A stretch of DNA of 64,000 bases from Minisyncoccota bacterium (GCA_036405415.1 DASWXP010000002.1:48097-112096); one strand, 5' to 3'; shown: positions 12,722-64,000, counted from the stretch's first letter. Program-made: numbers and translations. The notes: generated by a model not told the origin, from the sequence alone.

Positions 12722-13732
12722 ATGCCTCTCTTCTCTCCGCGCATCGGGATAGACCTCGGAACCACGAACGTGCTGGTGTTCGTGCCAGGGAAGGGAGTAG
12801 TCCTCAACGAGCCGTCCGTGGTGGCGGTATCGACCGATACTAATAAGGTGCTCGCTATCGGCGCAGAAGCTAAGGCGATGGTGGGGCGCACCCCGGATTC
12901 CATCCAGGCATACCGCCCGATGAAGGACGGCGTGATCGCGGACTACCGCGTTACCGAAGCGATGCTCCGCTACTTCATCCGGAAGGCGCTCGGCCGCAAC
13001 CTCTTTAAGCCGACCGTGCTTGTGTCGGTGCCCGCGGGTGTGACCTCTACCGAGAAGCGCGCCGTTATCGAGGCTGCCGTGAAGGCGGGAGCGTCTGACG
13101 CGTACGTCGTCAAAGAGCCGATCCTCGCTGCCATCGGCGCAGGCATCCCGATCCAGGAAGCGCTCGGGCGCATGGTCGCGGACATCGGCGGCGGCACTAT
13201 CGACGTGGCCGTGATTTCGCTCGGCGGCATCGTAGCGTCCACGTCCGTGAAGGTCGCAGGCAACAAGCTCGACCGCGCGATCATCGACTACGTGAAGAAG
13301 CAGTACAACCTCTCCATCGGCGACAAGACCGCAGAGGAGATCAAGATCACGATCGGGTCTGCGGTTCCCGTGACCGAGGAGCTCGTCATGACGGTGAAGG
13401 GACGCGACCTCGTGTCGGGCCTCCCTCGCACCATAGAGCTCAAGACCAACGAGGTGGTGCAGGCGCTGAACCGCGAGCTCCGCGAGATGATGAACGCCGT
13501 CCGCAAGGTGCTCCAGGACACGCCACCCGAGCTCGCTTCCGACATCATCGACAACGGCATCATCCTTACGGGGGGAACGTCGCAGCTCCGGCACCTTCCG
13601 GAGCTCGTGTACCGCCGCACCGGCGTGCAGGCGAAGCTCGCCGACGACGCGTACTACTGCGTGGCGCGCGGCACCGGCATCGCGCTCAACCATCTCGATA
13701 CGTATCGGAAGAGCATCATCTCGAAGAAATAG
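12722..13732 (+). CDS. mreB: rod shape-determining protein MreB (paralog 1)
   Basis: IGIDLGTTNVLVFV, DIGGGT and GGIVLTGGTS are actin-fold ATPase motifs of MreB. Confidence 0.9.
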   Translation: MPLFSPRIGIDLGTTNVLVFVPGKGVVLNEPSVVAVSTDTNKVLAIGAEAKAMVGRTPDSIQAYRPMKDGVIADYRVTEAMLRYFIRKALGRNLFKPTVLVSVPAGVTSTEKRAVIEAAVKAGASDAYVVKEPILAAIGAGIPIQEALGRMVADIGGGTIDVAVISLGGIVASTSVKVAGNKLDRAIIDYVKKQYNLSIGDKTAEEIKITIGSAVPVTEELVMTVKGRDLVSGLPRTIELKTNEVVQALNRELREMMNAVRKVLQDTPPELASDIIDNGIILTGGTSQLRHLPELVYRRTGVQAKLADDAYYCVARGTGIALNHLDTYRKSIISKK

Positions 13733-20873: not shown

Positions 20874-21124
20874 TGCGTGTCATGTCCATCATCCTCGCGC
20901 TTATCGCGCTCTTCATATTCCCGTGGCAGGTAGCGCTCATTGCTGTTTTTGGCGCCTCTCTCCTTACGCCGCTCTCGGGTATCGCGCTCGGCATCGTCGC
21001 TGACCTGGTGTACTTCGTTCCAGGAGCGGCATTCGTACCGTATTTCTCGCTCTTCGGACTTATCGCTACGGCAATCGGCTTTCTCGTGCAGCGTTTCGTG
21101 AAGACGCGTATCATAGGGGAATGA
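20873..21124 (+). CDS. mreD: MreD-like small membrane protein
   Basis: Two or three TM segments. The start overlaps the mreC stop (TAATG) and the stop overlaps the mrdA start. Confidence 0.5.
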   Translation: MRVMSIILALIALFIFPWQVALIAVFGASLLTPLSGIALGIVADLVYFVPGAAFVPYFSLFGLIATAIGFLVQRFVKTRIIGE

Positions 21125-22794
21125 TCTTCGGGCGATTCAGGAGACCTAGGCGCGGGCTTGAGCTCAACCCTGACGACATATTCCTCGACGCGTCGAACCT
21201 CTCAGGGTTCGACCAGAGCAGGCTTGAAGGACGTCTTGAGCGCCCGGTAGCGGAGCGCACCTTCGCGACGATCGGACTCGTCGTGGGCCTTCTCTTCATC
21301 GCCCTCATGGCGCAGGCAGCGAACCTGCAGATCATTAAGGGGAAGGAATACGCAGAGCGCTCTGAGCGCAACCGCCTGCGTCCTGAAGTGCTGTTCGCAG
21401 AGCGCGGTGCCATAGTCGACCGCAACGGCACTCCGCTCGTATATAACGAGCAGGGCGAGGACGGGTTCGTCCGGCGCGTATACGAATACCCGGGATTCTC
21501 GCATCTCCTCGGGTACGTGTCGTATCCGAAGAAGGATTCTTCCGGCAATTTCTACGAGACGGAGATAAAGGGACTGAACGGCGTGGAAGAAGCGATGGAT
21601 ACGGTCCTGGCAGGAGAGAACGGCACGTTGCTCGTCGAGGAGGACGCGCATGGCGATTTGCAGTCTTCCGGGACCGTGAAGCCTTCGCGCAAGGGCGAGA
21701 CGGTAACGCTCGCGATCGACGCGCGAGCGCAGCGCGCGTTCGCGAACGCAGTATCGGAACTCGCCGACCGCATCCCGTTCATGGGAGGCTCGGCGATCCT
21801 CATGGACGTGAACACCGGAGAGGTGCATGCGCTCGTGTCCTATCCCGAGTACGATCCGAACGTGCTTTCTTCGGGAGGGCCTTCGGACGTGATCGCGTCG
21901 TACCAGACGAACTCGCGCCGCGTCTATCTTGATCGTGCGGTGTCGGGTCTCTACACGCCAGGCTCCATCATAAAGCCGATGGAAGCGGCAGGAGCGATCT
22001 CGGACGGCGTAGTCTCGCCGTCCTGGGGCATCGTCTCGACCGGCTCCATCTCGATCCCGAACCCGTACGATCCGTCCCGACCATCGATCTTCAAGGACTG
22101 GAAGGCGCATGGGTATGTCGATGCGCGTCGCGCTATCGCCGTGTCTTCGGACGTGTACTTCTACGCGGTCGGCGGCGGGTACGGCGACGTGAAAGGGCTC
22201 GGCATAGAGCGTCTCAAGTACTGGTATGACGCGTTCGGCTTCACGAGTCCTACTGGCATAGAGCTTTCAGGCGAAGCGTCCGGCTTCGTGCCGACGCCTG
22301 CATGGAAGCAAGAGAAGTTCGGGGACCCTTGGCGTCTCGGCGACACGTACAACACGTCGATTGGACAGTACGCGATGCAGGTGACACCGCTCGAGGCCGC
22401 ACGGGCCGTTGCCGCGATTGCGAACGGCGGCATGCTGGTGAAGCCAACCCTTATCAAAGATGCGCCCTTGCAGGGACAGACCATCCAGATTAGCAAAGAT
22501 GCGATACGGGTCGCGCAGGAGGGCATGCGCATGGGAACAACCGAAGGAACTTCCATCGGACTGAATGCGCTCCCGTTCGTGAAGGTTGCCGGCAAGACCG
22601 GTACGGCGCAGCTCGGGGTTAACAACGAGTTCTATAACTCGTGGTCCGTAGGGTACTTCCCGTACGACAAGCCGAAATACGTGTGGGTGGTAGTGATGGA
22701 GCGCGGTCCGTCTACGAACGCTATCGGCGGCATCTTCGCTACCTATCAGGCGCTCTCGGAACTGCACCGCACCGCGCCTGAGTATTTCGAATAG
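21121..22794 (+). CDS. mrdA: penicillin-binding protein 2 (elongasome transpeptidase)
   Basis: N-terminal TM and dimerisation domain. SIIKP (SxxK) and KTGTAQ motifs. Confidence 0.85.
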   Translation: MIFGRFRRPRRGLELNPDDIFLDASNLSGFDQSRLEGRLERPVAERTFATIGLVVGLLFIALMAQAANLQIIKGKEYAERSERNRLRPEVLFAERGAIVDRNGTPLVYNEQGEDGFVRRVYEYPGFSHLLGYVSYPKKDSSGNFYETEIKGLNGVEEAMDTVLAGENGTLLVEEDAHGDLQSSGTVKPSRKGETVTLAIDARAQRAFANAVSELADRIPFMGGSAILMDVNTGEVHALVSYPEYDPNVLSSGGPSDVIASYQTNSRRVYLDRAVSGLYTPGSIIKPMEAAGAISDGVVSPSWGIVSTGSISIPNPYDPSRPSIFKDWKAHGYVDARRAIAVSSDVYFYAVGGGYGDVKGLGIERLKYWYDAFGFTSPTGIELSGEASGFVPTPAWKQEKFGDPWRLGDTYNTSIGQYAMQVTPLEAARAVAAIANGGMLVKPTLIKDAPLQGQTIQISKDAIRVAQEGMRMGTTEGTSIGLNALPFVKVAGKTGTAQLGVNNEFYNSWSVGYFPYDKPKYVWVVVMERGPSTNAIGGIFATYQALSELHRTAPEYFE

Positions 22795-23334: not shown

Positions 23335-23336
23335 CT

Positions 23337-23364
23337 GAAAGGCGGCCCGAGGGCCGCCTTTTGC
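23337..23364 (+). terminator. Rho-independent terminator after greA
   Basis: ggcggccc ga gggccgcc followed by ttttg. Confidence 0.75.
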
Positions 23365-23376
23365 GTTTGCTGCATT

Positions 23377-23877
23377 CTACAGCGCCGTGCCGGGACTGTA
23401 CCCGCACGATCCGACGAAGTGGCCCCGGTCTCGGTGATGTCGTGCCGCGTTGCGAGCGGCCCTCCACTGTCCGTTGCTCGTTCTCCGGGGAACCTTAAGC
23501 GCACCCTTCAGGGAATCAGTGAAGCGCGCAAGCGGCTTCCCGGAATAGACCCCTGAATCGCTGCGTGCCCGCTTCACCAGAACCAGACGCGGATGATGCG
23601 CGAGCCCAGGATCGATCTCGACGCCGCGCTGGGCGAGGTCTTGTTCGCGCGCTCCTGCTTCGCTGCGCAGGGTACAGGCAAAGTTGCCCTTGATAGGGGT
23701 GTCTCTCGAACAGGAGACGAGCACGATCGCGTCGTGGGGCACAGGATTCCCGTGCTCCACGAAGCGCGGCTCCCACCGAGCGCTCGAGAATGAACGGATG
23801 GTTGCGCTGAGCTGACTCAGCACGGCACCCTCCATGCCGACCAGGACGATGGGTTGGATACGAGCCAATGTATGCAC
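23377..23877 (-). CDS. doubtful hypothetical ORF
   Basis: The N-terminal half looks protein-like and the C-terminal half is Arg-rich. A plus-strand terminator lies downstream in the same intergenic space. Possibly not coding. Confidence 0.25.
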   Translation of the reverse strand: MHTLARIQPIVLVGMEGAVLSQLSATIRSFSSARWEPRFVEHGNPVPHDAIVLVSCSRDTPIKGNFACTLRSEAGAREQDLAQRGVEIDPGLAHHPRLVLVKRARSDSGVYSGKPLARFTDSLKGALKVPRRTSNGQWRAARNAARHHRDRGHFVGSCGYSPGTAL

Positions 23878-23947
23878 GGGTTGCTTCCTCTTGCTTTGGG
23901 AACTAGGCGGTTCCCGGTTGAAAGATCTGTACTTCGCTTGCCTGTAA

Positions 23948-24010
23948 CGAAGGAGCCCCCGTCCGTTTCCGGTCGGGGGCTCGTTTCAAGTTTCTTCGTT
24001 TACTTTTTCG
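23948..24010 (+). terminator. strong hairpin with a T-rich tail on the plus strand, no obvious upstream plus-strand CDS
   Basis: gagcccccgtccg tttc cggtcgggggctc, then gtttcaagtttcttcgtttactttttcg. Confidence 0.4.
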
Positions 24011-24171
24011 TAGAAACCTCAAGCGAAACCCCGACCGGACGAATGAGTCCGACGTAGACGAGGGCGGTAAAGACGAAGTTGCAGATCGCTTGATTCATTG
24101 CCGTATGAGCATAGCTTGAATCCGCGATTGCTCCAAATGCCGGTTATACACAACTTCCTGTACGGAACGTG

Positions 24172-24230
24172 AAGGGAAGTGGGGCGTAGTGTCATATAAT
24201 TGTGTATACGTGGGATGAAGTGGGAACAGG
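24172..24230 (+). promoter_or_regulatory. mraZ promoter (-10 TATAAT at 24195-24200) with TGGGG/TGGGA direct repeats (candidate MraZ operator)
   Basis: The repeats are GTGGGG at 24179, then GTGGGA at 24210 and 24220 (10-bp phasing). They lie just downstream of the -10, about 30-45 nt before the mraZ ATG. Confidence 0.5.
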
Positions 24231-24257
24231 TTCCCTTCATCCTCCGCCGAAACTTCC

Positions 24258-24692
24258 ATGCTCATCGGAGAATACCGCCACACCCTCGACGCGAAGAACC
24301 GGCTTTCCTTGCCGGCGAAGTTCCGTAAGGAGCTCGGCGCATCGGTCATCGTGACGCGCGGCCTCGATCACTGCCTCTTCGTATACCCGAAGGCGGCCTG
24401 GAAGAAGGAAGCGCAGAAGTTCTCGGCGCACTCCTCAGGCACCGCAGCGGGCCGTGCGTTCGCGCGCCTCATGCTTGCAGGCGCTTCCGAAGCGGACGTC
24501 GACAGCGCCGGCCGCATCCTCGTGCCTGATTACCTGAAGTCCTACGCTACCCTCTCGGGGAAGTGCGTGGTTGCCGGCGTCTCGGACCGTGTCGAGCTCT
24601 GGGACGAAGCGGCATGGGAGAGCTACACCAAGGATATCGAGCGGGATGCGGACTCGTTCGCTGAAGCTCTCGGCGCTAAGGCGCTCCAATAG
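24258..24692 (+). CDS. mraZ: transcriptional regulator MraZ
   Basis: MLIGEYRHTLDAKNRLSLPAKFR, and the second half repeats ...GRILVP.. Confidence 0.9.
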   Translation: MLIGEYRHTLDAKNRLSLPAKFRKELGASVIVTRGLDHCLFVYPKAAWKKEAQKFSAHSSGTAAGRAFARLMLAGASEADVDSAGRILVPDYLKSYATLSGKCVVAGVSDRVELWDEAAWESYTKDIERDADSFAEALGAKALQ

Positions 24693-24695
24693 CAT

Positions 24696-25646
24696 ATGGA
24701 AGGCCGTCACGACACCGTTCTCCTCGAAGAAGCCGTCGATGTGCTCGACGTACAGGCAACGGACGCTGTCGTGGATGCGACCTTGGGCGGCGCAGGGCAT
24801 TTCGCGCTCCTTCTCGGGAAGCTCGGGAAGAACGGCGCGCTCATGGGAATCGATGCCGATGAGGACGCTATCGCGCGCGCAAACAAGGTAGTTGCTGAAG
24901 TCTCAGAAGCGGATCGACCTAAGGTATCCCTCATGCACGGGAACTTCCGCGAGCTTGCGACCATGCTCGACGAAGCAGGCATGACGCCGGACAAGGTACT
25001 CTTTGACCTCGGATGGAGCGGCTTCCACCTCACGCGCGGCCGCGGCTTCTCCTTCAAGGCGGATGAGCCGCTTCACATGACCTACGGGGACCCGGCTCAG
25101 GGCACTACCGCCGCAGATCTCGTGAACCATCTTTCCGAGGCGTCGCTCGCGGACATGCTGTGGTCCTTGGGCGAGGAGCGCTTCGCGCGCTCGATCGCGC
25201 GCTCGATCGTCGCAGCCCGTGAGAACAGGCCGCTTGAGACGACGAGCGACCTCGTAGCGGCTATCGAGCAGGGCGTCCCGTCCTGGTACCGGCATCGCCG
25301 CATCCATCCGGCAACGAAGACCTTCCAGGCGCTGCGCATCGCGGTTAACGACGAGCTCGGCGCGCTGCGCGAGGGCCTTGCGGCAGCCCTCGAGCGCGTC
25401 CCTGCCGGCGGACGCATTGCGGTCATAACCTTCCACAGCATCGAAGACAGGATCGTAAAGACCCTGTTCCGCGAGGCGGTGGAAGCCGGGAAGGGAAGCC
25501 TGCTTACGAGAAAGCCCTTAGCCCCGTCGGTCCAAGAGACCGTACGGAATCCGCGAGCCAGATCCGCGAAGCTCCGCACGTTCGTCTCGGGCCCTCAAGA
25601 AATTAAGAAACGCATCAATCTAACCTCGTTCCCCGCTTATGCCTAG
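24696..25646 (+). CDS. rsmH: 16S rRNA (cytosine1402-N4)-methyltransferase RsmH
   Basis: VDATLGGAGH, FDLGWSG and ITFHSIEDRIVK. Confidence 0.9.
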   Translation: MEGRHDTVLLEEAVDVLDVQATDAVVDATLGGAGHFALLLGKLGKNGALMGIDADEDAIARANKVVAEVSEADRPKVSLMHGNFRELATMLDEAGMTPDKVLFDLGWSGFHLTRGRGFSFKADEPLHMTYGDPAQGTTAADLVNHLSEASLADMLWSLGEERFARSIARSIVAARENRPLETTSDLVAAIEQGVPSWYRHRRIHPATKTFQALRIAVNDELGALREGLAAALERVPAGGRIAVITFHSIEDRIVKTLFREAVEAGKGSLLTRKPLAPSVQETVRNPRARSAKLRTFVSGPQEIKKRINLTSFPAYA

Positions 25647-31715: not shown

Positions 31716-32486
31716 CTAGCGATACTTCGCAGGAACGCTCGTATAGCCGTTCTTGGTGACGATGACGTGATCCACGAGCTCGATCCCGAGGAGACGGCCC
31801 GCATCGACGAGCTGCGCGGTTACGGTCTTGTCCGCGGCGGAAGGCTCAAGCACGCCCGATGGATGGTTGTGCACAAGGATCACTGCCGCGGCTGCGTAAT
31901 CGAGGGCAGGACGGAATACCTCGCGCGGATGCACTATGTTTGAATCAATGGTCCCGATCGAGATCACCTCGTCGCGCACCACCTTGTAGTGGCCGTTCAG
32001 GTAGAGCCCTCGGAGCTGCTCCTTGGGAAGGGTCCGCATCTCGACGACATAGTCGTACACGTCTCGCGCGGTGCGCAGCACCGGAGCGGCGATCTCGTTC
32101 TTCGCGAAGAACCGGCGTCCGAGCTCGGCTGCGGCGACCACTTGCATCGCCTTGCCCTGCGGCAGGCCTATCTCGCGGGCGAGCCGCGCAGGATCGGTCT
32201 CCTGCATGAACGTGCGCTCGCCGTACTCCTTCACGATCCTCGAGGCCATGGAGAGCACGTCTTCTTTGGCGGTTCCAACCGAAAGGAGGATGGCGATGAG
32301 TTCGGTTGTGGAAAGCGCAGCAGGTCCATTAGCGAGCAGCCGCTCGCGCGGGCGATCCGTGTCCGGAAGGTCATGGATGGTGAGCGTGTAGGTGCGGTCG
32401 GTCGCTTCGACAAGAGGAATGTCTGGTGACAGGGAATACTGAGTCATAGTTCGCATCATAGCTGCGGGTAGCGTGTGCGTGCGCAC
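31716..32486 (-). CDS. radC: RadC-like JAB/MPN domain protein
   Basis: HNHPSG and a helix-hairpin-helix N-terminal region. Confidence 0.8.
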   Translation of the reverse strand: MRTHTLPAAMMRTMTQYSLSPDIPLVEATDRTYTLTIHDLPDTDRPRERLLANGPAALSTTELIAILLSVGTAKEDVLSMASRIVKEYGERTFMQETDPARLAREIGLPQGKAMQVVAAAELGRRFFAKNEIAAPVLRTARDVYDYVVEMRTLPKEQLRGLYLNGHYKVVRDEVISIGTIDSNIVHPREVFRPALDYAAAAVILVHNHPSGVLEPSAADKTVTAQLVDAGRLLGIELVDHVIVTKNGYTSVPAKYR

Positions 32487-32643
32487 TAGAAATCCCCAGA
32501 AGATTTCAGGTTTTCTTTATATTTCTGATACTCAGGTATACACAAGATTCATTGTGGCCCATGTGCTGCCTAACAAAATGGATTTCTAGATTGCACGGTC
32601 AGCAGATCATTAGAAAGATCTGTTCAGGTATACTTCAAGGACG

Positions 32644-49506: not shown

Positions 49507-50115
49507 ATGGAACTAGACCCACCAGTAATCCAGGCGCTCATTATAGCGACCACCACTTCTACTAACGATCTGCAAGTTCAAACGGCACTTTTGACCGGTT
49601 CATTTATAGTGCTCGGCGCTGCGGTTTCAGCACTTGCCACGTATTTAACGATGAAGCATCAGCAAGTTGCTGCAAACAAAGCTGCATCAGATCAACGTCT
49701 TTTTGATGCGCGTCGTATCGCGTACGGAGATGCGTTCTCGGTGATCAGTTTTTCAATCAATGAGCGGAATAACGGTCGAAGATATCCTGAACGTTCTACT
49801 GACCCAAGCAATAGAGAAGCAAATGATCTGATGGCACGACTATCCCTTCTATCATCTCAAGAAATGTCAGAACCATTAAGGCTTATGTTTGGTTACTTAG
49901 CCAGTCTAATTCCAGATACTGATGAAGCTAAAAAGCAAGACATGATTCAAGGGACTCTTTTATGGCAGAATCTGTTGTATGCCATGCGAGAAGATTTGCA
50001 TGGAGACGGCACTTTTTTACCAAATATTGTCCCTACTCCAGAGGGAGAGACCGTAAGGGAGACTGAAGACTCTACGGTGGTAACTGAGTCGTCGAGTCGA
50101 GATACCGGCCATTAA
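49507..50115 (+). CDS. membrane-anchored hypothetical protein (first gene of the AT-richer island)
   Basis: Its composition drops relative to the flanks. A TM (LLTGSFIVLGAAVSALATYL) is followed by a soluble domain. Confidence 0.45.
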   Translation: MELDPPVIQALIIATTTSTNDLQVQTALLTGSFIVLGAAVSALATYLTMKHQQVAANKAASDQRLFDARRIAYGDAFSVISFSINERNNGRRYPERSTDPSNREANDLMARLSLLSSQEMSEPLRLMFGYLASLIPDTDEAKKQDMIQGTLLWQNLLYAMREDLHGDGTFLPNIVPTPEGETVRETEDSTVVTESSSRDTGH

Positions 50116-50144
50116 AAATTCCCAATCTTTCCAAATTGTAGACA

Positions 50145-50654
50145 GGGAAGTGGCCTCTCCGGAGGCTTCTTCCTTTACCTCTAAAAGCACTCCCCCGGAC
50201 TCAATTTCGGGATTTCGGGGAAGTGGTCCGAAATGCTCTATTTCGCGCGCACGAAACTTTCGCAGGAGAAATCCCAGAGAGCCGGCCGGTGAGAGATTCC
50301 TATAAAAGAGTCTAAAGGGAAGTAGAGGAGTCTATGAATCGGAAGCCTTAAATGAACATTTTCAGCATTCCCGGATTCTATAGAAGTACTTCGTACAATA
50401 TATCTTTTACGCAGCACTTCTACAATACAGCGAGAAAGTGGGCCGTATTCGTTCTCGTGATGATCTCGGTCTCCGCTCGTCTAAGTAGATATATGTTCCG
50501 TACAAATGTCATTCAACCTATATGGAATCACATCTATCTACTCCTAAATCATCATCTAAAATATCCTCAGTGACACTTCCCCGATTACTGATAATGAGCC
50601 GGGGGAGTTATCTGTAAAAGAGAAAGAGTAGCCCCTCCCAGAAGTTACTTCCCT
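50145..50654. repeat. quartet of GGGAAGT(G) motifs: two direct (50145, 50217) and two inverted (50574, 50647), spaced about 72 nt within each pair
   Basis: agGGAAGTGGcc and gGGGAAGTGGtcc on plus. cACTTCCCCg and tACTTCCCTg are their reverse complements. They enclose an AT-rich 350-nt core. Confidence 0.5.
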
Positions 50655-50671
50655 GCCAAATCAAGCATTGA

Positions 50672-50818
50672 AGTCTTTGTAGTTCAGTCTCCCCAGGTCT
50701 TTCAGACTCTTGAACTGGTCCTTGAGAATAACGGTGAGGAATCTATTGAATCTTAGGTAGAAGCACAGTAGGATCCTGAGCAGCTTCTTAGGGATGCTCT
50801 TGCCTTATCGCAGCACCG
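50672..50818 (-). pseudogene. possible transposase C-terminal remnant (no start codon)
   Basis: The open frame GKSIPKKLLRILLCFYLRFNRFLTVILKDQFKSLKDLGRLNYKDFNA* resembles the R...(I/V)(E/I)..F..LK...GL C-terminal motif of IS4/IS5 DDE transposases. Weak call. Confidence 0.25.
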
Positions 50819-50853
50819 GGGCGCCCCATACAGAGAGCACTTCACCCAAGAAG

Positions 50854-51159
50854 ATGCGCATCGAGAATCGTGCCCAGAAGAAGCGCATTGCCAAGTTAGA
50901 AGACTACAGATGTCAGATCTGTAACTGGTCTATGACCTGGACTAACAAGAAAGGAAAAAGCTTCCAGCGTATAGACGTGGATCACATTATCGATAAATCC
51001 AAAGGCGGTGGAGAAGAAGCTTCCAACCTATGGGTGCTCTGCCCTAATTGCCACGTAAAGAAGACACTCGGTGTTATTACGATTGATCCAAAGAAGAAAT
51101 TGATTCAGGAGAATGGCCAGAAGATTGAGCTGCACCATGACTCTCATTTGGGGTGGTAG
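50854..51159 (+). CDS. HNH endonuclease
   Basis: CQICNW...DVDHIIDKSKGG...NLWVLCPNCH matches the HNH motif with a Zn-binding CxxC pair. Confidence 0.75.
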   Translation: MRIENRAQKKRIAKLEDYRCQICNWSMTWTNKKGKSFQRIDVDHIIDKSKGGGEEASNLWVLCPNCHVKKTLGVITIDPKKKLIQENGQKIELHHDSHLGW

Positions 51160-51493
51160 TCTTTGGCCACTTTCGTTTAATAGTCTCCTTGCCAAGTTTC
51201 CATAAATCCAATAGCAACGCGCCACTCCAGCCAAGTAATATTCCAATTAAAACCAAAGCCGGAGTTCCTATCATTGGTAGGTAAAGTACCTTTTCAAGTT
51301 GTTCAGGTCTGTCCTCCTTTACCATCTCAACAAAAATCATAAAAACAGGTATTCCCCAAATGGCACTGAATGCTGCATATTCAAACTCTCCAATTTTTTC
51401 TTCGCGCTTTCCTGCAAAGAATCTGTAACTGCAAACAACGCTAAAACCTCCCAAAACTATAAGAAAGTAGTTTAGGACATTTGGGTCGATCAT
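51077..51493 (-). CDS. hypothetical membrane protein (4 TM)
   Basis: Its 3' end overlaps the HNH gene convergently. The exact end is uncertain. Confidence 0.4.
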   Translation of the reverse strand: MIDPNVLNYFLIVLGGFSVVCSYRFFAGKREEKIGEFEYAAFSAIWGIPVFMIFVEMVKEDRPEQLEKVLYLPMIGTPALVLIGILLGWSGALLLDLWKLGKETIKRKWPKTTTPNESHGAAQSSGHSPESISSLDQS

Positions 51494-51494
51494 A

Positions 51495-52094
51495 TTACCT
51501 GTTGGTTGAGAAGTTGGTCACATTTATATCGTGACCCAACTTATTCTTTTTAGATAGCAGGTACTTCTCAATTTCTGGTGAGATTTCTAGATTGAGTTGA
51601 ATTCTCTCACTTACTTCAAAACCCTCATCAGTAAGCTGCTTTAGCTTCCTGGGGTTGTTGCTAATTAATCTAACTGGACTCGCCAAATGTAATTCTTTAA
51701 GGGCATTAATTGCTCCTGAGTAATCTCGAGGATCAAGATCCAAGCCCAACAACTCAAAAGCATCATGCGTATCGATGTCATGTATTCGTTGCACTTCCAT
51801 TGCTTCAATCTTCCTTTCAATACCGTGACCTCTCCCTTCCTGATACAGGTACACCAGAGCACCGCCCTGTTCAGACATTGATTTTAGGCTTTCTTGTAGC
51901 TGGAGATTGCAATCGCAGTCAACAGAACCAAGACTCTCGCTAAATATGCAGGACGAGTGGAGTCGCACCAGTGGATTAGCTACTTTCTCAACGCCCTCTG
52001 TCCAAAGGAGTAAGCCATGGGAATTAGTATCTCCCCAAGACCGGACCATAAAGCTGCCATACTTTGTAGCCAACGTAGTTTGAGGGTTAGTCAT
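51495..52094 (-). CDS. GTP cyclohydrolase II (RibA-like)
   Basis: VRLHSSCIFSESLGSVDCDCNLQL...GGALVYLYQEGRGHGI...RDYSGA...RLISNNPRK aligns with the RibA zinc-binding (CxC) and catalytic motifs. Confidence 0.75.
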   Translation of the reverse strand: MTNPQTTLATKYGSFMVRSWGDTNSHGLLLWTEGVEKVANPLVRLHSSCIFSESLGSVDCDCNLQLQESLKSMSEQGGALVYLYQEGRGHGIERKIEAMEVQRIHDIDTHDAFELLGLDLDPRDYSGAINALKELHLASPVRLISNNPRKLKQLTDEGFEVSERIQLNLEISPEIEKYLLSKKNKLGHDINVTNFSTNR

Positions 52095-52109
52095 GCTGCA
52101 GATTGGAAA

Positions 52110-52877
52110 CTAGCGTTTCTTCCACGTAATTACATCCCCAACTTTAATACCAAGGTTTCGTGCGCCGAGGGCACGTGCCTGACCTATCTCAAAAAGCCCA
52201 AATGAACTTCCAGGAAACATAGCCCACGCTCCTGTATCAAGAGACATCAATCGAGGTTCATACACTACCTCAAGAGCGTTTCCATTAATGGTGACATCAA
52301 ACACATCGCCAACCTCAACAGGTCCTGGGTCTCCGACAAACTTCATCATGCCAAAGTTATCGATGTGAACTATCGTTCCTTCTGCAAGGTCCATTCGCAC
52401 GATGTCTTTAGGATCAATTGCCTTTCCAAGCTCTGAAAGCGGTACGCCGCGTGCGGCGGCGGCGGCCAGTTTCGCCGTCGTGTACTTTCCAGCGAAGGAA
52501 ATAAAGCCTGCCTTATTATGCTCGGTCAGATCATACAGCTCTGAACATCCGTAGTCTCGTGTGAGCCAATCAAAACTTCCCATATTGCGACCTATGAACA
52601 CGATGCCACCTTTCTCTGTGCGGCCAATCACATTCATGGGCCGAACCTTCTCTGCATTGATGGTCGTCATCAAAACACTATTTTCAGGATACGAATCTGC
52701 CATCAATCGAACAGCAAAGTTTGTATTGATTACTGAGAATTCAGGCTGAATAGGAACAATAGGAGGGACAACGACGTTATCCATGCCTGCCACCTCACGA
52801 ATTAGGACCGCGTAGAGCTCATGTGCGGCTATGTCTATACAGTCCGTAATGTTAACCAGGTATTTGGTGTCAGTCAT
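52110..52877 (-). CDS. SAM hydroxide adenosyltransferase-like protein (DUF62; fluorinase/chlorinase superfamily)
   Basis: VHIDNFGMMKFV and GAWAMFPGSSFGLFEIGQARALGARNLGIKVGDVI match conserved C-terminal DUF62 blocks. The N-terminal motif has TDC in place of TDFG. Confidence 0.65.
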   Translation of the reverse strand: MTDTKYLVNITDCIDIAAHELYAVLIREVAGMDNVVVPPIVPIQPEFSVINTNFAVRLMADSYPENSVLMTTINAEKVRPMNVIGRTEKGGIVFIGRNMGSFDWLTRDYGCSELYDLTEHNKAGFISFAGKYTTAKLAAAAARGVPLSELGKAIDPKDIVRMDLAEGTIVHIDNFGMMKFVGDPGPVEVGDVFDVTINGNALEVVYEPRLMSLDTGAWAMFPGSSFGLFEIGQARALGARNLGIKVGDVITWKKR

Positions 52878-52934
52878 TGCCTTAAGAGTAGGCCGGACTT
52901 ATGCATTGTCAACCAAACCCTAGGAATAAGACCG

Positions 52935-53783
52935 CTACTTGCTAAGGGGTCTGGCTATGAACCCAAACTCAAGATTGAATTTTTCGGAAGGATTGCCATC
53001 AAAAAATAGTCTATGCATTTTGCGCGGCTCACTACTATCAAATGACGTGCGTGCATGCAGAGTACGCAAGTTGTCAGTAATAAGTACCTGCCCATGAGTA
53101 AGCCTAAAAGACATGCTGTTCGCACAGTTTTCGAGATAAGTACTAATCTTTTTCATCCCCTCTCGCACCAGCGCATCTTCAGAAGGAATACTTGTTTCGT
53201 CAGATCTGTATCGTATTGATATCCGGTCTCCAACTCTTTGAAGCAGAGCCTGGCACGAATCTTTCCCTGCTCTACTCACACGCAAAGCATTGGGTGCAAA
53301 GAGAGCCCTGGCTACTTCAGCATTATCCTTGACTAGATACTGGTAGATGTCATCACCACTTGCAAGTCGAGTGATGCCACCCTCTGCAGCCGGGGTGTCA
53401 CAGCGAAGCGCTACAGCACGAGGAGGAGTCTGCGCATATGCACCATCTGTATGAAATGAGTGTTCAAGGTTTGAAGTGCCCAAGTAGCCTTGGAAGTCTT
53501 CTGACACTGCGATTTCAGCAATATCATCTTCGTTTGCTCGATCATGCGGCATAGAATTACCGAAAATTTCTTTGAAGCAGAGCAGTTGTTCTCGAGGACT
53601 TTCATCTTGCGAAAACTCTACAACAACGGCCCCGTACCTATTAAAAAGCGTAACGATTTCCTTTGCAGCAGACGGCACGTCTTGAGAAGAACCAACCTTA
53701 ACGAGAATGGATCTCAAGAGAGTGGCTGAATTAAGCACTCCTTGAGTTGGATCTAATTCTCTTTTGCGGCTATTCCAGAACAT
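52935..53783 (-). CDS. TauD/TfdA-family Fe(II)/2-oxoglutarate-dependent dioxygenase
   Basis: HTDGAY (HxD facial-triad motif) and a distal His/Arg (RKMHRLFF) in a jelly-roll fold. Confidence 0.65.
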   Translation of the reverse strand: MFWNSRKRELDPTQGVLNSATLLRSILVKVGSSQDVPSAAKEIVTLFNRYGAVVVEFSQDESPREQLLCFKEIFGNSMPHDRANEDDIAEIAVSEDFQGYLGTSNLEHSFHTDGAYAQTPPRAVALRCDTPAAEGGITRLASGDDIYQYLVKDNAEVARALFAPNALRVSRAGKDSCQALLQRVGDRISIRYRSDETSIPSEDALVREGMKKISTYLENCANSMSFRLTHGQVLITDNLRTLHARTSFDSSEPRKMHRLFFDGNPSEKFNLEFGFIARPLSK

Positions 53784-53880
53784 GATTAACCCATCCTAGC
53801 TCTGCATTACATAAAAAGGAAATAGTCTTAATTTTACAAACCCCTTTTTCGCAGTTACGCTTACGTACACCAATATCGCC

Positions 53881-54873
53881 ATGACCTATAAACACCCTTC
53901 TCAACCTAGACTTAAAGAAGGTGATCTAGTCCGTGTAGTTTCATTTGGGCTTAGTACCAGGGGTATTACTCCTACCCAGCGAGAACTCTGCATTTCAAAT
54001 CTTGCAAGACTAGGACTGCGTGTTTCCTTTGGAAAGCATGTTGACGAGAGTGATGAATTTGACTCTTCGAGTGTTGAGAGTCGCATAGAAGATTTGCACG
54101 ATGCGCTGATTGATCCTGAAGTGAAGTTAGTACTCTCAAGTCTTGGGGGCATGAATGCTGCTCAAATACTGACTTATGTAGACTGGGAACTACTACGTGC
54201 GAATCCAAAGATGTTTTGTGGGTTTTCAGATATGGCGGCGCTCGTAAACGCAATTCACTCTAAAACAGGACTCGTCACCTATAACGGTCCCTTCTTTGGT
54301 ACATTTGGAATGAAGCAAGGACTGGAATACACACTTGAATCATTTGAGAAATGTCTCTTCACCTCTTCTGTATACCCACTTGAGCCGACAGAAACTTGGA
54401 GTGATGACGCGTGGTGGGCAGACCAAGAAAACAGGACATTTAATAATAATCCTGGCCCTACAGTTCTCAGTGAAGGAGAGGCTTCGGGTCGATTAATCGG
54501 AGGTCACCTTACTTCATTTGCTACCCTTTTTGGAACAGAATTTGCTCCAGATTTCTCTGACTCCATAGTAGCTATCGAAGAAAACTCAGAAATTAACCCA
54601 CGATCTTTCGATAGATTATTGCAAAACCTTGTACACCAAAAGGGCTTCAAAGAGGTCAAGGGCCTTCTTATAGGTAGATTTACTTCTCAGAGTGGAGTTA
54701 CTGACGAGATGCTTACTCGAATAGTTAGAACTTATCCTGAGCTTTCAAGTATTCCGGTAATAGTTAATCTCAGTTTCGGACATACCTACCCTCAGGCAAC
54801 TCTACCAATCGGCGGCAAAGTCCATATGGTTGCTAAAGGAGAGCAGCCTTTAGTAAATATCGTTAGCCATTAG
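53881..54873 (+). CDS. LD-carboxypeptidase, peptidase S66 (LdcA / microcin C immunity MccF-like)
   Basis: GFSDMAAL (nucleophile Ser in GxSD), LSFGHTYP (catalytic His) and the conserved Glu region. Confidence 0.7.
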   Translation: MTYKHPSQPRLKEGDLVRVVSFGLSTRGITPTQRELCISNLARLGLRVSFGKHVDESDEFDSSSVESRIEDLHDALIDPEVKLVLSSLGGMNAAQILTYVDWELLRANPKMFCGFSDMAALVNAIHSKTGLVTYNGPFFGTFGMKQGLEYTLESFEKCLFTSSVYPLEPTETWSDDAWWADQENRTFNNNPGPTVLSEGEASGRLIGGHLTSFATLFGTEFAPDFSDSIVAIEENSEINPRSFDRLLQNLVHQKGFKEVKGLLIGRFTSQSGVTDEMLTRIVRTYPELSSIPVIVNLSFGHTYPQATLPIGGKVHMVAKGEQPLVNIVSH

Positions 54874-54887
54874 AGTAAGGAAATCAC

Positions 54888-55277
54888 TTACTCCCCCTTC
54901 ATCCTCGATTCCCTTTTAATCTGCCAATACACTTCCTCGGACCCCGCATCTGTTCCTTCTTCCCTATTCTTAAAAACTTCAGCAGGATACTTGTCACGAA
55001 TCTTCTGGAGTTTTTTCTCGATAATCTCTGCGGTATCAAGTCCAAGCAATACGCTCATATCAAGGCAATAGATTAGGACGTCTGCCAACTCCTTCTTAAT
55101 GGCCTCGATTTTTTCCGTGTCCTCCTTAACTTCTTCAAGACTCGGGTTGGTCCACTGGAACAGTTCCAAAAGCTCGGACGCTTCTATTGAAATAGACTTT
55201 GCGAGATCTCCAGGACGGAGCTGGTCCCAGCCGCGCTCCACAAGATATTGCTTAATTGCGTCCTCCTGTTCCTTCAT
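54888..55277 (-). CDS. MazG-like nucleotide pyrophosphohydrolase
   Basis: EASELLELFQW and ELADVLIYCLDMS, with the EExxE/D metal-binding helices of MazG/dCTPase-like all-alpha NTP-PPases. Confidence 0.8.
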   Translation of the reverse strand: MKEQEDAIKQYLVERGWDQLRPGDLAKSISIEASELLELFQWTNPSLEEVKEDTEKIEAIKKELADVLIYCLDMSVLLGLDTAEIIEKKLQKIRDKYPAEVFKNREEGTDAGSEEVYWQIKRESRMKGE

Positions 55278-55312
55278 ACATACAGCATAGCAAATAGGTA
55301 CAAGGCGGTCTT

Positions 55313-55573
55313 TTAGTCCCGCCTTGCTAGTAGCTCCTTCGCTTCTTCTTCGGTTATGAACTCAAACACCGTGCAGCGGTCAGCCTCCTCGGGAGCACAG
55401 CACCCGCAGGAATAATCGTCTTCCCAAAGGATGTACTCCCCATGATTGTTTCGGAAAAGGTGTTTGCCGTCAGTGTGAAATTCGTACCTCAGGCAATCAC
55501 CACTTTCTGATCCAAGTCTGAACGCGGGATCGTTCCTGCGAGGAACGATAATTCCACAAGTTCCAACTCTCAT
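55313..55573 (-). CDS. hypothetical Cys-rich small protein
   Basis: SCGCC and CT motifs. 86 aa. Confidence 0.35.
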   Translation of the reverse strand: MRVGTCGIIVPRRNDPAFRLGSESGDCLRYEFHTDGKHLFRNNHGEYILWEDDYSCGCCAPEEADRCTVFEFITEEEAKELLARRD

Positions 55574-55584
55574 GTCCTTGCTCT

Positions 55585-55830
55585 CTAATGCACCGAAGGG
55601 ATAGGGAGATTCACATCTCCAGTTTCTCCATCGTGTTCCTCGTCATCAAGATCTGGAACAAAACCCTCGGAGATTTCAGGTTCATGATTAAGCGGCACGA
55701 TAACTGCCACCGAATCTTGCCCACGATCTATCTCGGGTTCGTCATCTGAATGCTCGAGGTCTGGCAGAAAAGGTCTATTCCCCACCTCGGGCTTTGGGGG
55801 CCTTTTTCGTATCTCAGTCTGATACGGCAT
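55585..55830 (-). CDS. hypothetical acidic small protein
   Basis: 81 aa, rich in Asp/Glu/Pro. Confidence 0.3.
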   Translation of the reverse strand: MPYQTEIRKRPPKPEVGNRPFLPDLEHSDDEPEIDRGQDSVAVIVPLNHEPEISEGFVPDLDDEEHDGETGDVNLPIPSVH

Positions 55831-55952
55831 GATCCTGGCTCCGTGTTGATGGGATCTTCCTGCAGCTTACGGTATTAGAATCCTTCTGCAATATGTGCTA
55901 GCGTCTGTCCAGATATGCGGCCAATTGCCGTGACCGTTCTTGGAGGTGGCTC

Positions 55953-56528
55953 ATGCCAACCGTCATTCACACCCTGGACGAGGATCGTGGAGACATGGAA
56001 TTCCTCACGTTCAGATTCCAGCTGCCCTATCTTGAGGGCGAGTGCTATGCATTCGCCATCGCGTTAAACCAGGGTCTTGGCTGGCCTCTGGTTGGACTTA
56101 TGAAGGGCGATGAGATCTGGCACGCAGGCGTTCGCGCGCCTAACGGCAAGATCTACGACGCTCGGGGTCCCCTCACGGAAGAAGCGTTCGGTGGCCACTT
56201 CATGCCGCCGCCGCACGTCATTCGCGAGGTCACCGAGGCCGAGCTGCGTGCTACCCGGCCAATTGCTGACTTCTCGGTCCAGCAAGCGCGGCAGTTCGCT
56301 GAAGTAAACTGGCCTGCGCTGCCCTGGCAGGAAAGCCTGGCTTCAAGAATCGAGGCCTTCGCAAGCGATCTGGAGGTCCTTTCTCGGAAGCATGGCTTCT
56401 GGATTGACGGACCCGTTCCTGCCAGTCTGCCGCTCATCATTCCTGGCGAGGGCGATGAAGGAGGCTACGAGCTTCGGCTCACGGTCGACGGCATGAAGTA
56501 CACCATCAATCGCTACCTGCTCAGGTAA
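55953..56528 (+). CDS. hypothetical protein
   Basis: 191-aa ORF followed by a strong terminator. Confidence 0.45.
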   Translation: MPTVIHTLDEDRGDMEFLTFRFQLPYLEGECYAFAIALNQGLGWPLVGLMKGDEIWHAGVRAPNGKIYDARGPLTEEAFGGHFMPPPHVIREVTEAELRATRPIADFSVQQARQFAEVNWPALPWQESLASRIEAFASDLEVLSRKHGFWIDGPVPASLPLIIPGEGDEGGYELRLTVDGMKYTINRYLLR

Positions 56529-60699: not shown

Positions 60700-62499
60700 A
60701 TGATTACTAAGAACACAAAGCTTGCGCAGGCGACCACCGTCGGTCTCATGGCTACCATGGTCCTTTCGGGCACCGGTGCCGCGCTCGCACAGCCGTCCGT
60801 AGCGTCCGCACAGGCCGCAACGGCAACGAGCGTCACGTTTACGCGTGACCTCACGATTGGTTCTTCGGGTGCCGATGTTATCGCGCTCCAGAACTGGCTT
60901 ATCAGCAAGGGCTTTACGATCGCCGCAGGCGCGACTGGCTACTTCGGTGGTCAGACCCAGGCAGCGCTCGCGCGCTACCAGGCATCCGCAGGCATCGCGC
61001 CGGCAGCCGGTTACTTCGGCCCGGTTACCCGTGCCAAGGTGAACGCAGGCACCCCGACTACGCCGACCACCCCTTCCAATCCGGATAACGGTGGCGCGCT
61101 CAAGGGTGACGAGGCAGACCTCAGAGACTTCGACTTCCGCCGCGAGCAGTCCTTGGGCAACGAGGGCGAGGAGGAGGTTGAGATCGCAACCGCAGAGTTC
61201 GACGTCGAGGATGGCGACATCCGCGTCGAGCGTATGGAGATCCTTGTCGAGGGTGCGAACTCCTCCCTTAACATGCAGCCATGGAGGTACTTCGATCGCA
61301 TCGCGGTGCTTGCTGACGGCAAGGAGGTAGCGGATCAGGATGTAGACTCCCGCTCTGACTGGAGCAAGTCCGGCAACGGCTACCGCCTCAACCTTACGGG
61401 CATGAAGCACATCGTCCGCGAGGGCGACACGGCAGAGCTCACGATTGTCGCAGACATCTCTGACAACATCGACACCGCAGACCTCGCGCAGACCTTCACC
61501 TTCCGCATCGCTGATAACGGCATCCGTGCCGTCGATGCAAAGGGCATCCAGCAGTACGTTGGCGAGGATAGCGAGACCGTGTCCTTCGGCTTCGGCGCAG
61601 AGGAGAACGGAGACCTCCGCATCTCCCGCGCAAGCGACAACCCGAAGGCATCGATCCTCGTATCTGACGAGGACCGCGAGTCTGGCGAGTACGAGGTATT
61701 CGTATTCGACATCGAGAACCGCGACGACGTTGATTCTCTCATCACGGATCTTACGATCAACGTGACGGGCATGAACGGCGGCGTGAACGCATCCGATGTT
61801 ATCCGCCGCGCATCCCTTGAGATCGGTCGCGATACCTTCGATGGCGACGTGAACGCATCCACCATCGAGTTCGAGGACATGGATCTCGAGATCGGTGGCG
61901 ACGATGAGGAGACGGCAACGCTTATCGTCCGCCTTGCGCGCTCTGCAACCAGCACCCCGATCGCCTTCTCTGTCGGCGACATCGAGGCTGAGGGCGTAGA
62001 GAGCGGCAACAGCGCAACGGTTGACGGTTCCGCTTCGAGCGAGACCCACACCATCGCTTCTACCGGCGTAGCCCTCGAGTCCGTATCGACCTCGCAGTCG
62101 GTCGTGACCCCGGGTGACGACGCTTCGGCGACCTACGGCACCTTCACCATCAAGTTCGATGTGACGGCGCTCGAGGATGATGCATACATCGCTTCCTCGA
62201 CCGCAGCTACGGGAACCGTAGGCGCGCTCTACGAGATCGGCGCAACCGCCTTCTCGGGCAGCGAGTCTGCAGTCCTCACGTCGACTGCACGCATGGAGAA
62301 CGGCTACTACCTCGTCCGCGAGGGCAGGACCGAGACCTTCACCCTCACGGTGACCCTCAATCCTGACGCAGCTGGTACGTTCGATGTCCGCCTTAAGGAG
62401 GTTCGCTTCAACGATGAGGCTTCCCTCTCAGGCTCGACGACCTTCACGGTCGCAAACGACAGCGACTACCGCACCAACCCGGTCTACATCGCAAACTAG
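60700..62499 (+). CDS. secreted protein with peptidoglycan-binding (PG_binding_1-like) domain and large acidic C-terminal region
   Basis: Signal peptide, then LTIGSSGADVIALQNWLISKGF...GYFGGQTQAALARYQ, a Pro/Thr linker and a D/E-rich domain of about 450 aa. Confidence 0.6.
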   Translation: MITKNTKLAQATTVGLMATMVLSGTGAALAQPSVASAQAATATSVTFTRDLTIGSSGADVIALQNWLISKGFTIAAGATGYFGGQTQAALARYQASAGIAPAAGYFGPVTRAKVNAGTPTTPTTPSNPDNGGALKGDEADLRDFDFRREQSLGNEGEEEVEIATAEFDVEDGDIRVERMEILVEGANSSLNMQPWRYFDRIAVLADGKEVADQDVDSRSDWSKSGNGYRLNLTGMKHIVREGDTAELTIVADISDNIDTADLAQTFTFRIADNGIRAVDAKGIQQYVGEDSETVSFGFGAEENGDLRISRASDNPKASILVSDEDRESGEYEVFVFDIENRDDVDSLITDLTINVTGMNGGVNASDVIRRASLEIGRDTFDGDVNASTIEFEDMDLEIGGDDEETATLIVRLARSATSTPIAFSVGDIEAEGVESGNSATVDGSASSETHTIASTGVALESVSTSQSVVTPGDDASATYGTFTIKFDVTALEDDAYIASSTAATGTVGALYEIGATAFSGSESAVLTSTARMENGYYLVREGRTETFTLTVTLNPDAAGTFDVRLKEVRFNDEASLSGSTTFTVANDSDYRTNPVYIAN

Positions 62500-62512
62500 C
62501 ATCTGCTAGATA

Positions 62513-62546
62513 GCAAAAAGCCCCGCTTCTGCGGGGCTTTTTGCTA
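62513..62546. terminator. bidirectional Rho-independent terminator
   Basis: gcaaaaagccccgc ttct gcggggctttttgc. Confidence 0.85.
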
Positions 62547-63233
62547 TGTGTACTCCGTGTAGTACTCGACTTTGATATCATCCACCCATTCGGTGCCCGG
62601 GATAATCGAGATGACCTTTCCGAACACACGAGAATCTTCCTCACGCACGATGATGGGCTTGTACGTGCCGTAGTGATTCTCTGGGTTGAGGTACACCACT
62701 TCATCCACCTTCGTGAAGCGCTTGATTACGGCCATGTTGCCAAGGATCGCGACTACCTTGTCTCCGTCGGTGACGTTCTCCGTCACCTCGACGATCACGT
62801 AATCGCCATTGCGGATACCGGCGTCGATCATGCTGTCTCCAACCGCGCGCACTGCCACGATATTTGTCGCGTTCTTGCGCGCGCCGATCAGGCTCCGGTC
62901 TACGACGATGTACTCCCCAAAGCTCTGCTCCGCGTATACGTCCAAAGCGTCGCATCCCGCAGAAGCGATAACCGGTACCTCGATGAGGTCAGAGGACATC
63001 TGGGACTCCACCCCTTCGATGATCGCGATGCTGCGGTGGCGGAACCGGTCGCGCTTGATAAGTCCCTTGCGCTCGAGCGCCTCGAGCCGCTGCGTCACGC
63101 TTCGGAGCGACTTGAGCGAGAACCGAGCACCGAGCTCGGTAATGGTCGGCGCCTTGCCGTGCTCATGCACGTACTCCTGGATGAACGAGAGCGTTTCCTT
63201 CTGAGCCGGGGTGAGCGCAACGAGCCGAGTCAT
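62544..63233 (-). CDS. lexA: LexA repressor (S24 peptidase)
   Basis: Winged-helix N-terminus, ASAG cleavage site, GDSM catalytic Ser and VIKRF Lys. Confidence 0.9.
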   Translation of the reverse strand: MTRLVALTPAQKETLSFIQEYVHEHGKAPTITELGARFSLKSLRSVTQRLEALERKGLIKRDRFRHRSIAIIEGVESQMSSDLIEVPVIASAGCDALDVYAEQSFGEYIVVDRSLIGARKNATNIVAVRAVGDSMIDAGIRNGDYVIVEVTENVTDGDKVVAILGNMAVIKRFTKVDEVVYLNPENHYGTYKPIIVREEDSRVFGKVISIIPGTEWVDDIKVEYYTEYT

Positions 63234-63267
63234 ACGTACATGCTACATCCCGAGCGTGCATGCGTGA

Positions 63268-63335
63268 ATACACAACCTGTGTCTTTTTCCACACAACATA
63301 CACAACTTTGGGATTTTCGATACAATAGAGAAAGC
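63268..63335. promoter_or_regulatory. lexA / exonuclease divergent control region: TGTGT-N8-ACACA palindrome, ATACACAAC direct repeats and a -10 TACAAT
   Basis: cTGTGTctttttccACACAa at 63277-63296. ATACACAAC at 63268 and 63298. TACAAT at 63321-63326, 10 nt before the ATG at 63336. Confidence 0.45.
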
Positions 63336-64000
63336 ATGGCTCGTTCCCTCACCACAACGCAATCAATTGAATGTCTTGCAGAAGGCACGTATGCATTCGT
63401 GGACGTCGAGACTACGGGCACGAGCGCCAAGTTTGGACAGATCATCGAGATCGGCATCTTGCGCGTCGAGAACGGTGCCGTTACGGATATGTATCAGACG
63501 CTCCTCAAGCCCGCGCGCCCCCTGCCGCCCATCATCACCTCCATAACCGGCATAACGGACCAGGACCTCGAGGATGCGCCGCCCTTCGAATCTGTGGCAG
63601 GACGTATTGAGGAGCTCCTTCAGGGTGCGGTATTCGTGGCGCACAACGCCGCTTTCGACTATTCCTTCGTGAAGCAGGAGTTCTCGCGCCTCGGGATCCG
63701 CTTCAACGCGAAGACGCTCTGCACCGTAAAGGTATCCCGCATGCTCTACGCTTCCGAAGAGCGGCATAACCTGGACGCGCTCATCGCCAGGCATAGCCTT
63801 GCCATGGAGAATCGCCATCGCGCCTATGACGACGCAGCCGCGCTGATCGAATTCCTGAAGGTCGCAACCAAGGAGCACGGGACAGAAGCTGTACAGGCTG
63901 CTATCGCACGTGCCTTAGGATCTGCCTCTCTCCCTACGACGCTCGACCCAAAGATCGTGAAGGATCTCCCGCACGCGCCCGGCGTCTACATCTTCTACGG
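63336..64000 (+). CDS. DnaQ-like 3'-5' exonuclease fused to GIY-YIG nuclease domain (Cho/Rv2191-like), 3'-truncated by the window end
   Basis: FVDVETTG, HNAAFDYSF and HRAYDDAAAL give the DEDDh motifs. It then reads LPHAPGVYIFYG, the start of a UvrC-type GIY-YIG. It is not in the ORF track because no stop falls inside the window. Confidence 0.7.
   Translation, partial: MARSLTTTQSIECLAEGTYAFVDVETTGTSAKFGQIIEIGILRVENGAVTDMYQTLLKPARPLPPIITSITGITDQDLEDAPPFESVAGRIEELLQGAVFVAHNAAFDYSFVKQEFSRLGIRFNAKTLCTVKVSRMLYASEERHNLDALIARHSLAMENRHRAYDDAAALIEFLKVATKEHGTEAVQAAIARALGSASLPTTLDPKIVKDLPHAPGVYIFY

Follow-up and report, generated by a model that had tools for sequence, protein, structure and literature searches.

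In Escherichia coli the SOS box has the form CTGT-N8-ACAG (consensus TACTGTATATATATACAGTA), and its half-site, CTGTATAT, resembles the repeat units TTGTGTAT and TGTATATA that we describe here from Patescibacterial lexA promoters. Unlike in the E. coli box, the units at our locus are arranged head-to-tail, and the inverted pairing that the locus does contain is not conserved. A head-to-tail arrangement is known from Alphaproteobacteria, where the LexA box is a direct repeat, GTTC-N7-GTTC, and not a palindrome (PMC8565304); our locus, at which LexA binding is predicted, shares this geometry but differs in the sequence of the unit and in the register, which is 9 bp here and 11 bp there. A LexA-binding motif for Patescibacteria was published in 2017 (Sanchez-Osuna, Barbe, Erill; Environ Microbiol 19:3465, PMID 28618189) and is counted among 17 distinct LexA motifs in the account given by PMC8565304. 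By that account, the 2017 study of the SOS regulon and LexA motif dealt with the superphylum and the regulator of the present locus.

The gene that faces lexA at our locus also has described relatives. E. coli cho is LexA-regulated and has a known SOS box (PMC6590174, Table 1), and Rv2191 of Mycobacterium tuberculosis joins a DnaQ domain to a UvrC-like endonuclease region (PMC11348249). Our nuclease resembles E. coli Cho (ydjQ), an SOS-inducible UvrC homologue, in its GIY-YIG 3'-incision module and Cho-type C-terminus, and its gene resembles cho in standing behind a predicted LexA-type operator; unlike Cho it carries an N-terminal DEDDh exonuclease domain, and the sequence and architecture of the operator differ from those at cho. 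With the Rv2191 type (PRK07883) it shares the domain order, in which a DnaQ-like exonuclease precedes a UvrC-like endonuclease region, but it has 478 aa against 563–642 profile positions, scores below the cut-off of every PRK07883 sub-model and belongs to another phylum.

The lexA gene and its divergent nuclease neighbour

We analyzed a stretch of 64,000 nucleotides (hereafter, the window), the end of which carries lexA and, on the opposite strand, the beginning of the nuclease gene (Table 1). The 229-aa lexA product combines an N-terminal winged-HTH domain with a C-terminal S24 autopeptidase domain, the two domains of a LexA repressor (Pfam LexA_DNA_bind PF01726, 2.5e-17; Peptidase_S24 PF00717, 2.5e-21), and scores 143 bits against TIGR00498, where the cut-off is 111. 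The Ala-Gly cleavage site A92-G93 (VIASAGCDA) and the catalytic dyad S134 (GDSM) and K171 (VIKR), which we take to be the counterparts of E. coli A84-G85, S119 and K156, showed no variation in an alignment of 18 homologues. Judged by its sequence, this LexA is cleavage-competent. An exact look-up of the protein returned nine places. Named relatives of the protein, and likewise the genome records carrying them, are annotated as Paceibacterota, Parcubacteria or Patescibacteria, and the host of the locus is a Patescibacterium (Paceibacterota/Parcubacteria; candidate phyla radiation).

The original prediction had placed at the window end a plus-strand gene with a complete DEDDh exonuclease domain followed by the start of a GIY-YIG domain, had described it as a Cho/Rv2191-like fusion and had noted its transcription away from lexA; each of these points is borne out. 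The open reading frame is missing from the ORF list because it runs past the end of the window. It starts at 63336 (not 63337), and 221 residues, MARSL...DLPHAPGVYIFY, lie inside the window. Residues 21–172 match RNase_T (E = 4.9e-34; profile positions 2–162 of 164), with the exonuclease motifs DxE, D and H-x4-D present as FVDVETTG, HNAAFD and HRAYDDA, while the GIY-YIG part within the window is limited to PGVYIFY. Among the NCBIfam models it matches PRK07883 ("DEDD exonuclease domain-containing protein") best, over profile positions 3–221 of 563.

A Logan assembly of SRR11449183 (L002) that is 100% identical to window positions 60877–64000 (3,124-bp overlap) continues 2.6 kb further and provided the contig extension that the original prediction had called for. 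In it the complete nuclease has 478 aa, identical to the window's 221 residues, and contains RNase_T and GIY-YIG (PF01541, 2.6e-7), with no additional Pfam domain, together with precomputed matches to UvrC_M and Cho_C. Because L002 supplies the full GIY-YIG domain, including the catalytic residues Tyr, Tyr, Arg, Glu and Asn, a downstream sequence lacking the rest of that domain, the outcome that was to count against the prediction, is not what we found. The Y, Y, K, R, E and N of this domain align one-to-one with Thermotoga maritima UvrC (1ycz), where their counterparts are the catalytic Y19, Y29, K32, R39, E76 and N88.

Residues 206–467 match the NCBIfam model of excinuclease Cho, NF007833 (E = 1.5e-54; profile positions 26–280 of 289), so that the match to the Cho-type C-terminal region reaches residue 467 of 478, and the EndoV-like/HhH half of UvrC is absent; residues 14–390 match PRK07883 with 260 bits. 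Neither equivalog cut-off was reached (Cho, 185 bits against 367; best PRK07883 sub-model, 260 against 495), and the protein is related in architecture to the Cho and PRK07883 models while being an equivalog of neither. By these alignments it has the Rv2191/Cho architecture, with a DnaQ-type exonuclease, a GIY-YIG domain whose catalytic residues are intact, and a C-terminus like that of Cho. At E ≤ 1e-20 a search for the exonuclease-Cho fusion returned 1,688 relatives; in the best 120 of these, those that carry a name are Patescibacteria, and the fusion is widespread in this group.

Table 1 Positions of the genes, repeats and predicted promoter elements at the window end
Feature	Position	Strand	Description
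lexA CDS	62544..63233	-	winged-HTH and S24 domains; Ala92-Gly93 cleavage site, Ser134, Lys171
lexA-nuclease spacer	63234..63335		102 bp
lexA -10-like hexamer TAGCAT	63240..63245	-	ends 6 nt before ATG
unit 3, single TTGTGTAT	63268..63275	-	-42 to -35 from lexA ATG; abuts predicted lexA -35
direct repeat ATACACAAC, two copies	63268..63276 and 63298..63306
TGTGT-N8-ACACA palindrome, TGTGTCTTTTTCCACACA	63278..63295		18-bp inverted repeat; right arm ACACA 63291..63295
TGTGT, left arm of the palindrome	63278..63282	+	weakly conserved; may be a degenerate inverted unit TGTGTCT
DnaA-box-like 9-mer TTTTCCACA	63285..63293	+	relaxed DnaA-box consensus TTWTNCACA; overlaps tandem unit 2
tandem TTGTGTATGTTGTGT, units 1 and 2	63291..63305	-	predicted core LexA operator; covers the -35 of the nuclease promoter
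third direct repeat, ACACAAC	63291..63297
nuclease promoter, sigma-70-type	63299..63326	+	predicted; -35 TACACA 63299-63304, 16-nt spacer, -10 TACAAT 63321-63326
nuclease, first 221 of 478 codons	63336..64000	+	DnaQ-type 3'-5' exonuclease/GIY-YIG Cho-like fusion, cut at the window end

Several features elsewhere in the window were recorded in passing. G+C content is about 60%, apart from an island at 50000–56000 (0.44–0.47 against ~0.60 elsewhere) that encodes GTP cyclohydrolase II, a SAM hydroxide adenosyltransferase-like protein, a TauD-family dioxygenase and an S66 LD-carboxypeptidase and may have been horizontally acquired. Two MreB paralogues (12722–13732 and 19052–20113) lie 5 kb apart and a PBP2-type transpeptidase is encoded at 21121–22794; such MreB/PBP2-type rod-shape machinery is noteworthy for a Patescibacterium with a small genome. 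After greA, about 650 bp (23335–24000) have no convincing ORF or Rfam match and close with a G+C-rich hairpin and, behind it, a T-rich tract (GAGCCCCCG...CGGGGGCTCGTTTC, ~23953–23990); this stretch might represent a long 3' UTR or an RNA not yet described. An Rfam scan of the window returned two tRNAs only.

Repeats in the spacer between the genes

The original prediction had described a spacer of about 100 bp with an 18-bp inverted repeat and direct repeats, all of which are present, and had proposed the palindrome TGTGT-N8-ACACA as the LexA operator. That part does not hold up against the related loci. We collected 79 lexA loci from distinct genomes and aligned the DNA upstream of each lexA start, assessing conservation among 46 species, those in which LexA shares at least 56% identity with the protein of the window. 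The conserved element, read on the lexA strand, is AAsTTGTGTATrTTGTGT, which consists of two head-to-tail units in a 9-bp register. Its core TTGTGTATrTTGTGT is exact in 35 of the 46 species, with alignment columns near 2 bits each, and lies mostly ~70–73 nt upstream of the lexA ATG (50–84 overall) regardless of the upstream gene, which is co-directional in 23 of the 39 scorable loci. Because this tandem is present whatever lies upstream, it belongs to lexA. It is thus the tandem that has the two properties asked of an SOS box, a place in the lexA promoter and conservation in orthologous promoters. Between the window and its relative L001 the core of the spacer is invariant, while the flanking coding DNA has diverged by about 10%. 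A further single unit, unit 3, is conserved in the clade with 73–86% LexA identity; in the closest clade its distance downstream from the first unit is 31 nt, and at the corresponding position the clade with 62–67% identity has TTGTGGATAAC.

The palindrome by itself is not beyond chance. Allowing up to one mismatch it occurs once in the window, shuffled sequences gave 0.40 copies per window (35 of 100 shuffles had at least one), and by our own arithmetic about 0.7 inverted repeats of the 5+5 type with spacing 4–12 are expected in any 102-bp stretch. That a LexA dimer nevertheless binds these 18 bp in the manner of the E. coli box seems improbable to us. The geometry is E. coli-like, the TGTGT arm is kept at four or more of its five positions in 8 of the 9 loci with a divergent nuclease, and distant relatives have inverted pairs of units near promoters, such as CTTGTGTAT-CTC-ATACACAAG at L050. 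Among the 35 species that keep the tandem exactly, however, the arm is perfect in only five and matches at four or more positions in only eight, though most of these LexA proteins share the helix SLRSVTQR, and it varies even among the nine divergent loci. The conserved ACACA arm is fully accounted for as part of tandem unit 2. Because one arm belongs to the tandem and the other is rarely kept, we do not regard the palindrome as the operator; at most, the TGTGT arm is a fourth unit, inverted and degenerate, that the nearest relatives have retained. What stands of the original reading is that the spacer very probably carries a LexA operator, and what changes is its form, the conserved element being an array of direct repeats.

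In ~700 kb of fetched loci together with the window, exact copies of the tandem are almost confined to lexA promoters. The only other exact sites that we encountered lie at L034, L159 and L095. In L034 (Parcubacteria bacterium C7867-008) a second exact copy, TTGTGTATATTGTGT (1768–1782, minus strand), lies 2.1 kb from lexA and just upstream of a small ORF of ~116 aa without a Pfam match. L159, a metagenomic Patescibacterial contig, has the tandem twice (1997–2011 and 6685–6699), before a C5 cytosine DNA methylase gene (2079–3188) and before lexA; both copies share a -10-like box, TGTGYTAAAY, and the methylase may belong to an element, mobile or of the restriction-modification type, that LexA controls. 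In L095 the tandem precedes a non-lexA gene. A scan of metagenome contigs for TTGTGTATRTTGTGT gave, among the 80 loci listed, two (L095 and L159) in which a DnaA-box-like sequence accompanies the tandem, and only L159 among these 80 encodes a LexA relative; the remaining matches look like chance or low-complexity TG-rich sequence, and we rejected them as regulon sites. Within the window no second tandem was found at up to three mismatches, and recA, uvrA and dinB are not among its genes; recA was also not found in the fetched loci with an E. coli RecA query.

Single units also occur elsewhere in the window, where the octamer TTGTGTAT appears five times against 0.43 expected. One copy (32538–32545) lies ~52 nt upstream of the putative start of radC (31716–32486, minus strand; RadC JAB domain and UPF0758_N). 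Two more (24146–24153 and 24200–24207) lie in the 380-bp intergenic region upstream of mraZ-rsmH (24258–25646), the start of a cell-division (dcw) cluster; within the stretch 24146–24257, just upstream of mraZ, stand the GTGGG repeats AAGTGGGG, ACGTGGGA and AAGTGGGA, which look like MraZ boxes. We did not accept the radC and mraZ copies as operators: each is a lone unit, which speaks only weakly for LexA control, the intergenic DNA around it is richer in A+T, and the copy at 24200 overlaps a TATAAT-like box.

The repeat units change together with LexA. In the clade with the recognition helix SL/IRSV/L (mostly SLRSVTQR), TGTGTAT units are present in 46 of 46 promoters, whereas the SPR[S/A]VTQY clade, with 39–48% LexA identity, lacks TGTGTAT units and has mostly TGTATAT, arranged in a tandem of the same kind, as in TGTATATAATGTATATA. 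The motif thus varies with the DNA-binding domain of LexA, as expected of an SOS box. The LexA of L159 combines a QY helix with G-type units and is a residue-level exception, so that the co-variation is not attributable to a single residue. Because lexA is the only gene common to all fetched loci, because the unit co-varies with the LexA clade and because the unit resembles the E. coli half-site, these comparisons point to LexA as the protein that would bind the repeats.

The original prediction had also expected the operator to define the SOS box of this lineage, which was an overstatement, since a Patescibacterial motif had been published earlier. Our literature search found no open paper stating that motif; the forms to set beside it are TGTATATAnTGTATATA and TTGTGTATrTTGTGT.

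Predicted promoters and proposed control of the gene pair

A consensus scan of the spacer returned one promoter, TACACA-16-TACAAT, which is directed toward the nuclease gene and ends 9 nt before its ATG. In all nine divergent loci (seven species) the predicted -35 lies within unit 1, 16–17 nt from a TAnAnT -10. Because the -35 is inside unit 1, LexA bound to the tandem would block this promoter. On the other strand, a TAnn[AC]T hexamer starts 10–16 nt (usually 12) before the lexA start codon in 36 of the 46 loci, and we infer from a -10-like element so near the ATG that the lexA mRNA is leaderless or nearly so. Spanning -72 to -58 relative to the lexA ATG, the tandem would be far upstream for a repressor of such a promoter, so that autorepression would have to use the proximal unit or cooperativity.

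On this evidence we think it likely that the end of the window is an SOS control locus at which LexA represses both lexA and the divergent nuclease gene through the TTGTGTAT array. LexA would bind the array in the 102-bp spacer, with the tandem as its core, and repress its own leaderless promoter as well as that of the 478-aa nuclease. Unit 1 would hold the nuclease -35 and unit 3 would abut the lexA -35, with autorepression acting through unit 3 and helped by the tandem. Upon DNA damage, RecA-stimulated self-cleavage of LexA would release both promoters, and the nuclease, with a DEDDh 3'-5' exonuclease and a Cho-type GIY-YIG 3'-incision module, would act as a back-up excision nuclease, as has been suggested for Cho of E. 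coli and for the Rv2191 type of mycobacteria.

The nuclease might instead be a chance neighbour in one sub-lineage that is not damage-inducible, with the tandem autoregulating lexA only. The constant distance of the tandem from lexA, kept where the upstream gene is co-directional or unrelated, would fit this view, as would the distribution of the nuclease gene: it adjoins lexA only in the nearest relatives, and in five more distant genomes (L091, L092, L214, L215 and L216) the tandem was not found upstream of Cho-like genes that are not adjacent to lexA. Because these genes lack it, LexA control may be limited to the divergent arrangement. We nevertheless consider a mere chance neighbourhood unlikely. 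In the nine divergent loci the sole good nuclease promoter has its -35 in unit 1 at a conserved spacing, and E. coli cho belongs to the SOS genes (PMC6590174). In another lineage, at L213 (1405–1501), moreover, a Cho-like exonuclease/GIY-YIG gene faces an operon of an S24 peptidase and a Y-family polymerase (IMS) across a spacer that contains no tandem but TGAACTATGGTTCA, a GAAC-N4-GTTC palindrome of the Gram-positive SOS-box type; this is an independent hint that the exonuclease-Cho gene type is recruited to SOS control by differing operators. Control of the nuclease by LexA is therefore plausible for the window locus, as judged from promoter and repeat placement.

A DnaA-box-like 9-mer and the meaning of the locus

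The "T-rich centre" noted in the original prediction forms, together with the ACACA arm, the conserved TTTTCCACA, a DnaA-box-like 9-mer. In 38 of 76 Patescibacterial loci the 130 nt before lexA contain the exact 9-mer TTATCCACA, and in 57 of the 76 they contain an exact or relaxed form, including that of the window, which fits the relaxed consensus only. The exact 9-mer reaches 3.85 copies per kb in lexA upstream regions and 0.013 per kb in the rest of these loci, a roughly 300-fold enrichment. By eye, in the upstream sequences, it adjoins the LexA units in either orientation, and its sequence is kept even as the LexA unit changes from clade to clade. Copies also flank the tandem at two non-lexA promoters, in L159 (1983–1996) and L095. 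The sequence TGTGGATAA is one base apart from the unit TGTGTATAA, and in the 62–67% clade the 9-mer occupies the promoter-proximal position held here by unit 3.

The 9-mer could be a real DnaA box, through which the replication initiator would co-regulate lexA, or a special LexA unit, and its place at the position of unit 3 in the 62–67% clade favours the latter. Tentatively, and with less confidence than we place in LexA control itself, the Patescibacterial lexA promoter may be composite, joining a LexA tandem operator to a true DnaA box. Expression of lexA and, at this locus, of the divergent Cho-like nuclease would in that case be set by the replication initiator together with the SOS repressor.

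Another reading gives the conserved elements to a factor other than LexA, such as DnaA, and makes the whole array a sensor of replication status. The enrichment of TTATCCACA upstream of lexA and the single-base difference between 9-mer and unit speak for it, but the TGTGTAT/TGTATAT units change with the LexA clade and the 9-mer does not. Furthermore, all loci share lexA and no other gene, and LexA proteins generally autoregulate. We regard this reading as very improbable and retain LexA as the predicted binder of the units.

With LexA as the predicted repressor of both genes, the locus is an ordinary, well-formed Patescibacterial SOS control locus of a kind already known. The general picture of the SOS response is unchanged by it, the possible partnership with a DnaA box being the only element that might alter that picture. 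The analysis of the spacer corrects a tempting misreading of the site as an E. coli-style palindrome and offers a concrete, testable operator for a Paceibacterota lineage, made of TTGTGTAT units in a 9-bp head-to-tail register. In one sub-lineage an exonuclease-Cho gene appears to have been wired to the lexA promoter, and the shift from TGTGTAT to TGTATAT along with the LexA helix provides a compact natural system in which drift in LexA specificity could be followed.
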